Shown: positions 26,134 to 30,792, numbered from the stretch's first letter. The stretch: DNA of 64,000 bases from an uncultured Sphingomonadaceae bacterium (GCA_947497455.1 CANMGU010000002.1:402506-466505); one strand, 5' to 3'. Numbers and translations: made by a program. The notes: a model not told the origin generated them from the sequence alone.

Positions 26134-26396
26134 ATTGTTCGGGATTCTGACGCATTTCATCGCCGGATGACCGAAATCGAATTATTTCATTTTGTAACAA
26201 CCCTGCATAAAATCTATATTTTACAGAAGGTTAGAGCGTTCACAATGCTTTAACCATGACTGGCAGCAAAGCCTTATCCTTTGTCGTCGATAAGCAATCT
26301 CGAATGTTGGCGTATAGCGACATCTAACCAGTGGGTTTGGTCAGATGCACCGTAGGCGCCCTTTCGTATAGTAGTGAAATATAGGGACCAGAAAAT

Positions 26397-26897
26397 ATGT
26401 CTAAGTTTATCAAAGCCGCTGTGGCTTCTTCCGTACTTGCCGCTTCAGTAATGGGTGCAAACGCTGCTCACGCTGCAACTGCAACCGCTGACGCACGTGC
26501 AAATATCCTCGAAGAACTGACCGTAACCAAAGATGCCGGTACGGATCTTGATTTCGGTACGATCGTTACAACCGGAACGGCTGAAACCGTAACTGTTGGT
26601 ACAGACGGTGTTCGCGCCGCTTGTGTAAGCGTTGTTTGTTCAGGTGCTTCTGATGCAGCGGACTTCTCGGTAACCGGTTCTGCTTCTGAAGCAGTTACAC
26701 TGACCGTACCTGGTTCAGTTACCTTGACCGGCCCTGGTGGCGCAATCATGAACGCCAACCTGAATTCATCCGCGCTTACCGCGTTGGACGCTTCGGGTAA
26801 CGGTGCATTCTCAGTAGGTGGCGCGCTTGACGTTGCTGCTACTCAGGCTGATGGCGCTTATGTCGGTACCTTCACGGTAACCGTTGACTATCCTTGA
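26397..26897 (+). CDS. Secreted DUF4402-type putative fibre (pilin-like) subunit
   Basis: A signal peptide (AASVMGANAAHA) precedes a Thr/Gly/Val/Ala-rich beta-type sequence. It has LDFGTIV, two Cys residues (ACVSVVCSG), and ends GAYVGTFTVTVDYP. A chaperone and an usher-like gene follow it. Confidence 0.7.
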   Translation: MSKFIKAAVASSVLAASVMGANAAHAATATADARANILEELTVTKDAGTDLDFGTIVTTGTAETVTVGTDGVRAACVSVVCSGASDAADFSVTGSASEAVTLTVPGSVTLTGPGGAIMNANLNSSALTALDASGNGAFSVGGALDVAATQADGAYVGTFTVTVDYP

Positions 26898-26944
26898 TTT
26901 TTTCACCGTCCTGTTCGCAGGGCAGTGTTTGCTGAGATATCAGA

Positions 26945-27978: not shown

Positions 27979-28032
27979 TCTAGGTATTACAATATTTTAG
28001 GCTGACGTCAGTCCGTTATGCAGCCGAAATAA

Positions 28033-30792
28033 GTGATGAAACAGCAACTCTTCATATTTTATCAGCGATTAAAGTCGCTGGTATCGGCCGCAGGGATCAC
28101 CATGATCCCGGCGGCTTTGCTGTTTCTTCTGGGACCGCTCATGGCATCGGCCGCTCACGCCCAGAGTAGCTGGACGGCCAATGATGATGACGCCCTGCTA
28201 TTTGATTTGCGGTCCGGCAAATATCGCCTAGGCGATGGTGTAAGGGGTTATCAGACCGACAAGGGCATTTGCGCGGACTTTGCCGATGTGATCATGGCAT
28301 TTGATGTACCAATTAGGTTGGATAAAAAGTCGCGCCGCGCAACTGGATGGGTATTTGCTGAACGCGAAACACTGATCGTTGAGCGCGACAGTAAATCAGT
28401 ACAAAAGGTGAACAGCACCAAAAAACTGGTGCCCGGCGAGATTTATGACACTCCTGAAGGCTGGTGTGTCGATGTCAAAACGCTTTCAAATTGGTTTGAT
28501 ATTGAATTGCGGCCTGATTTGTCCAATGCGTTGCTGATCGTTGAGACAGAACGCAAATTGCCATTTCAAAAGGCCTTGGAACGTAAGGAAAGGGCCGCAA
28601 AAATTCGGCCTCGGCGAAATTTTGACCTTTCAAGCCTGCCGCAATCGACCGAGCCCTATAAATTCTGGAGAACACCATCGGTTGATGCTGTGGTTTCAGC
28701 TGGCGGCCTGCGCGACAAACGGTCCGGCCAGGAACTGGACGTACGCTACGAGCTATTTGCGTCGGGCGAGGTGGGTAAGGCGTCTTTCGATGCCCGTCTA
28801 TCTTCTGATGACAAGGGTGTGCCAGAAAGTCTGCGGCTCAGAGCCTATCGCACCGATCCCAAGGGGGAGCTTCTAGGCCCGTTAAAGGCGACGCATGTCG
28901 CTGTCGGCGATGTTTCGACCTTTTCTACCCCGCTAGTGTCGCAAAGTGCGGCCGGGCGCGGCGCGATCATCACCAATCGGCCAGTGGATCGACCCGATAA
29001 TTTTGATCGGACAAGCTTTCGCGGCGAATTGCCAGCTGGTTGGGACGCAGAACTGTATCGCAATGGCCAATTGCTGGCTTTTGCAGAAAATCGGTCCGAT
29101 GGCCGCTATGAATTTATCGACGTTCCGCTGCTCTATGGCCAGAATCGCTTTGAAGTGGTGCTTTATGGCCCGCAAGGCCAGATCCGCCGGGATAGCAAGT
29201 CTGTTCCGGTGGGACTGGATTCCATCCCGCCACGCAAAACCTATTATTGGGCTGGTGGACAAGAGGCCGGAAAAGACCTGATCAGCTTCAACGCCTTGGA
29301 AAATCTCCAACAGGCCGGTTGGCGCGGTGGATTTGGTGTGGAACGCGGGCTCAATGCGAAAACATCGGTGGCCGCTTCCCTGTTCAGCCTTCAGCTGGAC
29401 GGACAGCGGCGCAACTATATCGAAGGATCGGTCCGCCGCGCTGTCGGGCCGACCTTGGTCGAGCTATCTGCCTCGTCTGCATTTGATGACGGTACTGCAT
29501 TCCGTGCCCAATTGCTTGGTGAACTGGGCAATAGCTTCATCACCGCCGAAACCATATGGGCACAGGGCGGCTTCCGGTCAGATCGCATCGAACAAAACGT
29601 GAACGGAAAGCACAGCCTCTCGGTGGACCACAATTTCAAGCTGGGAAGCAAGATCTTACCTTTTCATATCGATGCGCAGTATGAAACACGCACGGATGGC
29701 CGATCTTCGCTGGATGTGACCAGTAGAGCATCGTTGAACCTGCGACGGTTTTCGCTGACCGGCGAGTTGAAATGGGAAAAACAATTTACCGACATCGGAA
29801 GCATTCCCGATCGGATTGAAGCGCGATTGCTGGCCAACGGGCGGATAGCTGGCGTGCGGCTGCGCGGCGAAGCGACATATCGCCTTGCTCCGGAAAGACG
29901 TTTCGAAAGGGTTAATTTCACCGGCGAATGGCGCGCTGGTGATCGTGCGGATTGGCGCGCGGAGCTTGGCTATGATGTTGGCCTGGATCGCGGTCGTGCC
30001 GCCCTCGGGATCATCCGGCGTTTTGATAAATTCTCGCTGACGGCGAGCGCGGAGGCGGCAACTGATGGCTCGGTGGCAGCAGGGTTGAATCTCGCATTCA
30101 GTTTCGGCCCGGATCCGCGCAATGGAAAATTCCGCTTCTCGAACAATAAGCTTGCCAATAGCGGCCAGGCGCTGGCCATTGTTTATCGTGACAAAAACCG
30201 AGATGGAAAGCGACAGCCCGATGAAGAACTGGTTGAGAATGTTGAATTGACCGCGGGGCAGTCGACGGCACTGACGCCGACGGACGCCGGAGGGCGGTCG
30301 ATCATCGATAATCTGCAACCCTTCCGACCTGTTCTGATTGGTATTGATGCCGGAAGCTTGCCAGACCCGTATGTCCAGCCAGCGATTCCCGGTGTTGTTA
30401 TAACGCCTCGCCCCGGCATTGCCGCTACGGTCGAACTGCCGCTGGTTAGCGCCGGCGAAGTGGAAGGCACTTTGATGCGTGAAGGTGGTGCAATCCTGGC
30501 CGGAGTCGGTCTGGAACTGTTAGACGTTGAAGGTCGTGTCACCCATAGTACACAAAGCGAATTTGACGGCTTTTTCCTGTTTGAAGGCGTGCCTTACGGT
30601 GCCTATCAGGTTCGGATTCAGGCCCTATCGGCACAAGCCATCGCGGTTGCGCCGGTTCTCAACATTCGCGCAGTGGTGGATGATGATAATCAGGTCGCCA
30701 AGCTTGGTGCGGTTGTCGCACAGTCTGATGCGGTGATGGCAAATCTGGGCGGTGTTCCGACCGGCGCACCAGGCGGCGCGCCGGAACCCTGA
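28033..30792 (+). CDS. Usher-like outer-membrane assembly protein (919 aa) with a C-terminal carboxypeptidase-regulatory-like domain
   Basis: It has a signal peptide (..LLGPLMASAAHAQS) and an usher-reminiscent segment, ELYRNGQLLAFAENRSDGRYEFIDVPLLYGQNRFEVVLYGPQGQIRR. A long run of amphipathic beta-strand-like repeats spans roughly aa 430-700. The C-terminal segment GEVEGTL..GVGLELLDVEGRV..TQSEFDGFFLFEGVPYGAYQVRI is CarboxypepD_reg-like. An alternative start lies at 28102. Confidence 0.6.
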   Translation: MMKQQLFIFYQRLKSLVSAAGITMIPAALLFLLGPLMASAAHAQSSWTANDDDALLFDLRSGKYRLGDGVRGYQTDKGICADFADVIMAFDVPIRLDKKSRRATGWVFAERETLIVERDSKSVQKVNSTKKLVPGEIYDTPEGWCVDVKTLSNWFDIELRPDLSNALLIVETERKLPFQKALERKERAAKIRPRRNFDLSSLPQSTEPYKFWRTPSVDAVVSAGGLRDKRSGQELDVRYELFASGEVGKASFDARLSSDDKGVPESLRLRAYRTDPKGELLGPLKATHVAVGDVSTFSTPLVSQSAAGRGAIITNRPVDRPDNFDRTSFRGELPAGWDAELYRNGQLLAFAENRSDGRYEFIDVPLLYGQNRFEVVLYGPQGQIRRDSKSVPVGLDSIPPRKTYYWAGGQEAGKDLISFNALENLQQAGWRGGFGVERGLNAKTSVAASLFSLQLDGQRRNYIEGSVRRAVGPTLVELSASSAFDDGTAFRAQLLGELGNSFITAETIWAQGGFRSDRIEQNVNGKHSLSVDHNFKLGSKILPFHIDAQYETRTDGRSSLDVTSRASLNLRRFSLTGELKWEKQFTDIGSIPDRIEARLLANGRIAGVRLRGEATYRLAPERRFERVNFTGEWRAGDRADWRAELGYDVGLDRGRAALGIIRRFDKFSLTASAEAATDGSVAAGLNLAFSFGPDPRNGKFRFSNNKLANSGQALAIVYRDKNRDGKRQPDEELVENVELTAGQSTALTPTDAGGRSIIDNLQPFRPVLIGIDAGSLPDPYVQPAIPGVVITPRPGIAATVELPLVSAGEVEGTLMREGGAILAGVGLELLDVEGRVTHSTQSEFDGFFLFEGVPYGAYQVRIQALSAQAIAVAPVLNIRAVVDDDNQVAKLGAVVAQSDAVMANLGGVPTGAPGGAPEP

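Follow-up and report, generated by a model that had tools for sequence, protein, structure and literature searches.

A DUF4402-based gene trio with the features of a divergent chaperone-usher system in an uncultured marine sphingomonad

Here we describe a set of three adjacent genes carried by a 64,000-nt stretch of DNA from an uncultured Sphingomonadaceae bacterium (GCA_947497455.1 CANMGU010000002.1:402506-466505), whose source is described as a marine sphingomonad; this whole stretch is referred to below as the window. In all likelihood the locus is a complete, divergent chaperone-usher (CU) assembly system built on a subunit of the DUF4402 family. An earlier note on this DNA had proposed an uncharacterised CU-like fibre operon on such a subunit, and the proposal is upheld by family, structure, profile and linkage evidence. 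Three co-directional open reading frames are found on the plus strand where that note had placed them, and every peptide it had quoted (GTFTVTVDYP, LLVAPTRIILDG, YRISM, VTLPPNQPQAIRL and ELYRNGQLLAFAENRSDGRYEFIDVPLLYGQNRFEVVLYGPQGQIRR) could be located in the translations. All three proteins have a signal-peptide-like N-terminus. The genes are the following, with ECP standing for the Escherichia coli common pilus and AF2 for AlphaFold2:

26397..26897, plus strand: putative major fibre subunit, DUF4402, 166 aa (PF14352, E=1.2e-25)
27136..27978, plus strand: predicted periplasmic PapD-like chaperone, 280 aa, divergent and non-classical (ECP-like) (PapD_N matches in the family; hhalign match to EcpE)
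28033..30792, plus strand: predicted outer-membrane usher, 919 aa (GTG 28033) or, more likely, 896 aa (ATG 28102) (AF2 model and Foldseek)

The subunit matches Pfam PF14352 with 91.1 bits (gathering cut-off 25.2; E=1.2e-25) over profile positions 1-129 of 129, and this full-length match above the gathering threshold settles its assignment to DUF4402, which had been proposed before. No SCPU, Fimbrial or MatB match was obtained for it in Pfam at E<=1. Across 68 homologues the A-x-A signal-peptidase site is invariant or nearly so, and the cut probably falls after AHA26. The mature N-terminus, ATATADARANIL, is a candidate donor strand, where A29, A31, A33, A35, I37 and L38 make up an alternating N-terminal strand that is likewise invariant or nearly so. 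Positions A29/A33/A35, C76, C81, G153, Y155, F159 and Y165, including two cysteines, do not vary among the homologues. At the other end, the sequence G153-x-Y-x-G-x-F-x-V-x-V-x-Y165-P constitutes a candidate F strand, and the chain stops one residue past the pilin-type F-strand motif. Counting from the end, Gly153 occupies position 14 and Tyr165 position 2, and both are invariant.

A Gly at position -14 together with a penultimate Tyr is the classical pilin C-terminal signature in the recognition of subunits by PapD, and the same Gly and Tyr are present in E. coli FimA (...GAANADATFKVQYQ). The earlier statement that the subunit does not look like a classical Fim/Pap pilin is thus only half right, since its C-terminal motif and its N-terminal strand strongly resemble those of FimA and Caf1. 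From the structural perspective, the AF2 model of the subunit has a predicted local distance difference test (pLDDT) of 88.5, and the top ~26 Foldseek matches of this model in the PDB are almost all CU pilins (Caf1, CfaB, CS17, FimF/G/A, PapA, HdaB), the best being Caf1 (E=0.013, probability 1.0). Furthermore, in hhalign the last 35 residues of the DUF4402 profile align end to end with Caf1 (18%, E=0.0013); the comparisons of the same profile with EcpA (<=3%), EcpD (<=2%) and FimA were not significant. The subunit may have an incomplete immunoglobulin (Ig)-like fold that lacks the G strand and has an open groove.

The second protein already carries public names such as 'molecular chaperone', 'fimbrial biogenesis chaperone' and 'PapD', and it belongs to a large family: an exhaustive profile search retrieved 2,893 clusters (50% identity) at E<=0.001, of which 777 reach 1e-30. 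In a family alignment of 98 sequences, made up of 97 full-length cluster members (31-51% identical to the query) and the window protein, 84 members match PapD_N at E<=0.01, with a best value of 1.8e-8. Moreover, the family profile aligned by hhalign with EcpE, which is the second of the two common-pilus chaperones in E. coli, gives a probability of 93.8% (E=1.7e-7, 149 columns). This is the only significant chaperone match obtained, as the comparisons with FimC (15%), EcpB (8%) and Caf1M (0.3%) are not significant taken alone; a broad chaperone profile searched against PDB sequences gave sub-threshold matches to FimC, CfaA and CupB2. The PapD_N matches of the family and the profile match to EcpE bear out the reading of the 280-aa protein as a PapD-type chaperone. 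Its mature length, 248 residues, is compatible with a two-domain Ig-like boomerang fold.

Several conserved residues of this chaperone can be placed on those of known ones. A single proline has been described as the sole residue invariant across all CU chaperones (PMC4654587), and P103 of the window chaperone aligns with this invariant D1 proline in the EcpE hhalign alignment. In archaic and alternative chaperones only, an arginine of the F1 strand (Arg89 of CsuC/EcpB) anchors the subunit carboxylate (PMC4654587). In the window chaperone, R132 (within GEYR), at least 90% conserved in the 98 relatives, aligns with the arginine of the EcpE YYR motif, and it is probably the residue that anchors the C-terminal carboxylate of the subunit. 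In turn, R42 (within APTRII), also at least 90% conserved, aligns with FimC Arg8 in weak alignments (HMMER E=0.33; hhalign 15%) and may be the equivalent of this classical arginine. By hand alignment, the position of the classical Lys112 in strand G1 is seemingly held by the invariant P169, and therefore the classical Arg8/Lys112 pair is probably incomplete.

As for the third protein, Pfam detects just a CarboxypepD_reg/SdrD_B domain at residues 810-870, and in public annotation it goes by 'carboxypeptidase regulatory-like domain-containing protein' or by 'MSCRAMM family protein', and not once by 'usher'. The predicted architecture is nonetheless that of an usher. The AF2 model (pLDDT 78.8, from 53 sequences) comprises a mixed N-terminal domain (50-171), a linker helix (177-190), a barrel of six long strands (212-314) and then eighteen more (403-693), interrupted after about strand 6 by a six-strand beta-sandwich (326-393) that forms the plug, and at the C-terminus two further domains (700-790 and 796-896), the second of which is transthyretin-like. 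The peptide ELYRNGQLLAFAENRSDGRYEFIDVPLLYGQNRFEVVLYGPQGQIRR, which the earlier note had called usher-reminiscent, sits within the predicted plug domain. When this model was compared with the PDB by Foldseek, ranks 1-18 were all FimD or PapC (E from 8e-28 to 4e-13, up to 922 columns), with template modelling (TM) scores normalised to the target of 0.38-0.57. The first match that is not an usher, a fragment of SdrD, appears at 3e-10 and lies on the last domain, and other barrels follow from 1e-7. The description of the 919-aa protein as usher-like is therefore sustained, the top 18 structural matches of the model being ushers without exception.

The linkage between the three genes constitutes a further layer of evidence. 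A scan for the chaperone motif, covering a single genome of each species, retrieved at least 543 stretches encoding a relative of the chaperone, of which the best 80 loci, all of them from Sphingomonadales, were used. The order subunit-chaperone-usher is kept in every one of the 80 loci with enough contig, and because of this the arrangement of the trio is not due to chance. Beyond this order, five distant metagenome contigs, with chaperones 33-40% identical to that of the window, carry one to three DUF4402 genes together with the chaperone and a protein of ~890 aa (in one of them, L087, the contig stops 551 aa into the third gene), and another DUF4402 gene is located 3′ of the usher in one of the five. 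The same cluster is annotated on plasmid pE5SP1 of Polaromonas sp. E5S and on a large replicon of Pseudoalteromonas xiamenensis, whose chaperone passes the PapD_N threshold. Thus, the association of DUF4402 with chaperone and usher neighbours, on which the earlier proposal relied, was found in every context sampled, in alpha-, beta- and gammaproteobacteria.

A profile search of the whole window disclosed a second DUF4402 gene, at ~24 kb from the operon and located between holA and msrB:

1464..2015, minus strand: second DUF4402 gene, an orphan of 183 aa, coding for a candidate minor or tip subunit (PF14352, 60.9 bits, E=2.6e-16)

In the orphan protein the signal peptide is directly followed by the motif QCRLC, and there is no alternating-Ala strand. 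Its nearest relatives (38-43% identity, E from 1e-31 to 1e-35) are in-operon paralogues bearing the motif AQxCQLCA, encoded directly upstream of the major subunit gene in two loci (L062, 4610-5128; L069, 4621-5136), and the next-nearest ones are the secondary paralogues of the distant operons. The position between holA and msrB is kept in three related metagenome contigs (L089-L091). These likenesses single out the orphan as a candidate for a minor or tip subunit belonging to the same system and, more speculatively, an acceptor fold devoid of a donor strand would fit a tip or first-incorporated subunit. The earlier note had described the fibre as homopolymeric and the operon as having no minor-subunit gene. 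It is correct that the operon contains a single subunit gene; the second DUF4402 gene stands elsewhere in the window. The existence of this minor-type paralogue, which in other genomes is found inside the operon, undercuts the claim of a homopolymer, and we consider it doubtful.

The spacer that separates subunit and chaperone genes contains a GC-rich hairpin 48 nt 3′ of the subunit stop codon:

26945..26976, plus strand: intrinsic-terminator-like hairpin with T-run, subunit/chaperone spacer (14 bp, 9 of them G-C; RNAfold -28.6 kcal/mol)

A hairpin of <=-10 kcal/mol with a T-rich tail occurs within 150 nt of the subunit stop in all 77 related loci (77/77), with stems that differ in sequence. 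It is probably an attenuator that keeps subunit mRNA in excess of chaperone and usher mRNA. An attenuator between the major subunit and the downstream genes is known in the pap and fim operons.

These elements can be brought together in a mechanism. The Sec system would export the mature DUF4402 subunit, of 140 residues, to the periplasm, where the 280-aa chaperone would capture it, completing the incomplete Ig-like fold with a strand of its own and anchoring the carboxylate, probably through R132 in GEYR. The chaperone-subunit complex would then dock on the N-terminal domain of the usher, envisaged as a plugged barrel of ~24 strands. There, the strand of the incoming subunit (A29/A31/A33/A35/I37; residues 27-40) would displace the chaperone strand from the previous subunit, that is, donor-strand exchange would take place, and the growing fibre would be threaded through the unplugged barrel to the cell surface. 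The product is likely to be a thin adhesive or biofilm fibre consisting mostly of one subunit, with the orphan minor-type DUF4402 protein perhaps serving as its primer or cap. In this scheme fibre assembly is inferred, not shown, and the same applies to the donor-strand mechanics, polymerisation, fibre morphology and biological role.

A number of results weigh against a CU system and must be considered together. The Pfam check that the earlier note had proposed gave a negative answer for both machinery proteins: the window chaperone has no match to PF00345 (PapD_N) and the window usher none to PF00577 at E<=1. The latter profile is also missing in 52 of the 53 relatives of the usher, the remaining one reaching E=0.061, and it does not match the usher homologues of Polaromonas and Pseudoalteromonas either. 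The chaperone found no match among PDB sequences, alone or as a narrow profile (28 sequences, at least 64% identical); the usher sequence found nothing relevant there. In hhalign, the usher family was compared with FimD, EcpC and Caf1A using three alignments of rising diversity, including the Polaromonas and Pseudoalteromonas homologues (23-27% identical), and no comparison was significant (<=1.4%). The assignment of the usher is therefore structural only, and it depends on a model for which the underlying alignment was fairly shallow (53 sequences, all at least 56% identical). With respect to the subunit, its matches in structure searches have little strength (E=0.013 at best, with TM ~0.40-0.46 and nothing at E<=0.001), its profile found no match and its sequence nothing relevant among PDB sequences, and both the open groove and the missing G strand are inferred and not demonstrated. 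NCBIfam holds no family for any of the three proteins. Finally, a search of the literature library used here found no paper naming DUF4402, PF14352 or IPR025514 and no paper linking chaperone-usher pili to Sphingomonadaceae; judged by title and abstract, none of the papers mentioning both Foldseek and chaperone-usher covers the DUF4402 family. No experimental data or literature was found for any member of the family.

The alternative that best survives accepts the CU machinery and differs in its product, which would be a thin, flexible, capsule-like or amorphous coat made of one subunit, as the F1 antigen of Yersinia pestis formed by Caf1, with a protective or anti-adhesive role. We regard it as unlikely, though it is the rival to be taken most seriously: no structure matches the subunit better than Caf1, the two proteins are alike in their N-terminal strand and in their C-terminal motif, and the parts list is that of caf1M-caf1A-caf1, namely a single gene each for subunit, chaperone and usher, and none for a tip adhesin. 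However, the chaperone is matched by EcpE and not by Caf1M, for which the profile comparison gives only 0.3%, and the minor-type paralogue, found within the operon in relatives, fits better with a fibre having a specialised end subunit. Morphology as such is not predictable from the present data.

It is improbable, in second place, that the usher-like barrel and the PapD-like protein display a monomer or small oligomer of DUF4402 with no donor-strand polymerisation, as a CU-derived secretion route. The groove that polymerisation needs is a presumed feature of the subunit, the Foldseek E-values of the subunit are weak, and AF2 is very confident about the subunit as a monomer (pLDDT 88.5). Nevertheless, the invariant alternating-Ala extension and the C-terminal Gly/Tyr motif are precisely the elements that strand exchange needs, genes encoding abundant structural subunits typically come with a terminator that raises the level of their mRNA, and the several DUF4402 paralogues per operon in relatives resemble sets of major and minor pilins.

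Membership of the archaic (sigma, Csu-type) CU family, which the earlier note had suggested as possible, appears very improbable. In its favour, an F1-strand arginine is typical of non-classical chaperones, archaic and alternative alike, and this system, like the archaic ones, is common among environmental bacteria. In contrast, the subunit has no SCPU (PF05229) match at E<=1, CsuA/B structures are not among its top 50 structural matches, and the only significant match of the chaperone is EcpE, which is of the ECP (alternative) type. Moreover, PF00577 does recognise archaic ushers, and it does not recognise the usher described here. The suggestion of an archaic type is thus not sustained, the closest chaperone match being ECP-type.

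Lastly, the view suggested by current annotation, in which the three neighbouring genes have no functional connection and specify a periplasmic beta-sandwich protein, one of Ig-like type and a generic outer-membrane barrel carrying a carboxypeptidase-regulatory-like domain, can hardly be maintained and is strongly disfavoured: public annotation never says 'usher' and Pfam detects just the C-terminal transthyretin-like domain, but order and adjacency are strictly kept across three proteobacterial classes, the domain order is usher-specific with Foldseek matches exclusively to ushers down to 4e-13, and the chaperone is homologous to EcpE and PapD_N.

Having weighed these alternatives, we retain the complete and divergent CU system as the best explanation of the locus, and the problem of its place among the known branches arises. 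The system behaves as a CU pathway and yet it fails the sequence definitions of the branches known so far, i.e., PF00577 for the usher, SCPU for the archaic systems and EcpA/EcpD for ECP. We are evenly divided on whether it should be seen as an unclassified and deeply divergent CU clade outside the six Greek-letter ones, which would be characterised by DUF4402 pilins, a chaperone with mixed anchors and an usher invisible to PF00577, would be widespread in environmental alpha-, beta- and gammaproteobacteria, and would have been missed by all usher-based censuses. The chaperone of such a clade would mix the non-classical F1 arginine with a possibly classical A1 arginine, and its usher would end in a transthyretin-like domain. 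Such a clade could shed light on how classical and non-classical donor-strand mechanisms came to diverge.

The genomic context of the trio is also informative. In the window it lies downstream of mnmG, rsmG, parA and parB, on the same strand (21790-26133), and in 64 of the 80 sphingomonad loci it follows parB in this origin-proximal set (mnmG-rsmG-parA-parB). This stresses that the trio is an old, vertically inherited chromosomal locus and not an island. The downstream genes, for an alpha/beta-hydrolase and a diacylglycerol-kinase-like protein, are common to 31 loci only. The G+C of the operon agrees with that of its flanks, and a mobile-island origin in this genome was considered and rejected given this composition and the parB-adjacent position in 64 of the 80 loci. 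The nearest relatives of all three proteins come from Parasphingorhabdus and Sphingorhabdus, and the earlier guess of a sphingomonad-like host was therefore right.

The situation is different in other lineages. Plasmid pE5SP1 of the betaproteobacterium Polaromonas has 65 kb, and the cluster adjoins IS6 and transposase genes there; this location, together with the one on the Pseudoalteromonas replicon, indicates that the system is sometimes mobile. In the Polaromonas cluster (L092), a gene of 135 aa from an unannotated family (2907-3314) stands between two DUF4402 genes. Another distant contig (L086) encodes a 261-aa protein (944-1729) in which two stretches match DUF4402; its gene is flanked by an ordinary DUF4402 gene on one side and by the chaperone gene on the other, and this lineage may thus have a subunit of two domains, similar to an adhesin. 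In four further contigs (L083, L085, L087 and L088) the cluster adjoins LytTR-type response regulators, GAF/PAS histidine kinases or GerE-type regulators, which hints at two-component control of these distant operons. There is no such regulator in the flanks of the window operon.

Two of the start codons deserve a comment. The ATG of the chaperone (27136) has a GGAG 8 nt upstream and is nested in a longer TTG open reading frame (26884-27978). For the usher, the GTG at 28033 yields 919 aa with an odd leader of 43 residues. The ATG at 28102 is preceded by an AGGGA ribosome-binding site and yields 896 aa with an ordinary 20-aa signal peptide, and many homologues have been called at this same length; for these reasons ATG 28102 is more likely to be the usher start than GTG 28033.

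The region preceding the subunit gene completes the description of the locus:

26134..26396, plus strand: leader or upstream intergenic region of the subunit gene, 263 nt (promoter-like site at 26192-26220; blocks conserved in close relatives)

In an alignment of 31 loci of the Parasphingorhabdus group, several blocks of this leader are conserved in at least 90% of the sequences, among them CTTTAACC near 26250, TGGGTTTGG near 26333 and the GCACCGTAGGCGCCCTTTCG region. They could represent a regulator-binding site or a structured 5′ untranslated region. The promoter-like match at 26192-26220 scores 9/12 and does not exceed what chance would yield in this region. We also considered a sigma-54-like TGGCA element within the conserved leader and rejected it because the spacing is wrong. 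Riboswitches and other known RNAs were sought in the leader and in the subunit-chaperone spacer, with no Rfam match at E<=1.

Usher censuses classify CU pili through the usher, which is found with Pfam PF00577 (e.g., PMC5717340). A CU-like gene set whose usher is invisible to PF00577 and whose subunit belongs to a 'domain of unknown function' would lead to whole lineages being counted as devoid of this type of fibre. The scale of the family gives weight to this point: in the species-genome collection the chaperone motif scan retrieved at least 543 stretches, and the chaperone profile matches ~2,900 clusters built at 50% identity. If confirmed, the present proposal would provide a function for DUF4402, would lead to the re-annotation as ushers of thousands of 'carboxypeptidase regulatory-like/MSCRAMM' proteins, and would offer marine and soil sphingomonads a candidate organelle for adhesion or biofilm formation. 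It would also add a new branch for comparing classical and non-classical donor-strand mechanisms. The system extends a well-understood pathway and brings no new principle.

The comparison with known systems illustrates to what extent the locus combines familiar features. As in the F1 system of Y. pestis (caf1M-caf1A-caf1), which belongs to the classical type with a long F1-G1 loop (FGL), there is one subunit, one chaperone and one usher, and no tip adhesin in the operon. Caf1 and the DUF4402 subunit are alike at both ends: the N-terminus TATATLVEPARITLTYK of Caf1 can be set beside TATADARANILEELTVTK of the subunit, both showing a donor-strand style of alternating Ala/Thr followed by a hydrophobic residue, and the C-terminus GKYTDAVTVTVSNQ beside GAYVGTFTVTVDYP, where the likeness is in the ...G-x-Y-...-TVTV-..-Q motif. 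On the other hand, the subunit gene is the last one in caf and the first one here, Caf1 does not belong to DUF4402, the chaperone has no detectable profile likeness to Caf1M (0.3%) and the usher no detectable sequence likeness to Caf1A, and no AraC-type regulator lies next to the window operon.

The alternative ECP/Mat system (ecpA-E) is approached through the chaperone, whose profile match to EcpE (93.8%) includes the YYR/EYR arginine and the invariant D1 proline. Besides, the Joint Genome Institute labels some DUF4402 homologues 'Mat/Ecp fimbriae major subunit', a label of this source that is unconfirmed. However, the DUF4402 profile does not match EcpA or EcpD (<=3%), the usher does not match EcpC, the match to EcpB is weak (7.8%), and neither a 547-aa tip adhesin of the EcpD type nor a second chaperone is encoded in the window operon.

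With the ushers FimD and PapC, the window protein shares the predicted N-terminal domain, the barrel of ~24 strands, the plug after about strand 6 and the two C-terminal domains; it differs from them in its ~12% identity, in the missing PF00577 match, in a last domain that Pfam detects as CarboxypepD_reg/SdrD_B and in the extra linker helix 177-190. FimC, the chaperone of type 1 pili, has in GATRVI (Arg8) a motif that resembles, on a weak alignment, the A1 motif APTRII of the chaperone described here; the multi-subunit tip fibrillum of type 1 and P pili is not encoded in the window operon.

In turn, the archaic (sigma) Csu pili of Acinetobacter baumannii have in common with the locus the F1 arginine of the chaperone, the small operon, the occurrence in environmental bacteria and, as far as the proposed product goes, a thin fibre. 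They differ in having SCPU-domain subunits, the two-domain tip adhesin CsuE and several minor subunits. The nearest known counterpart is thus a different one for each part of the system: Caf1 for the subunit, EcpE for the chaperone, and FimD/PapC, the only usher structures among the matches, for the usher.

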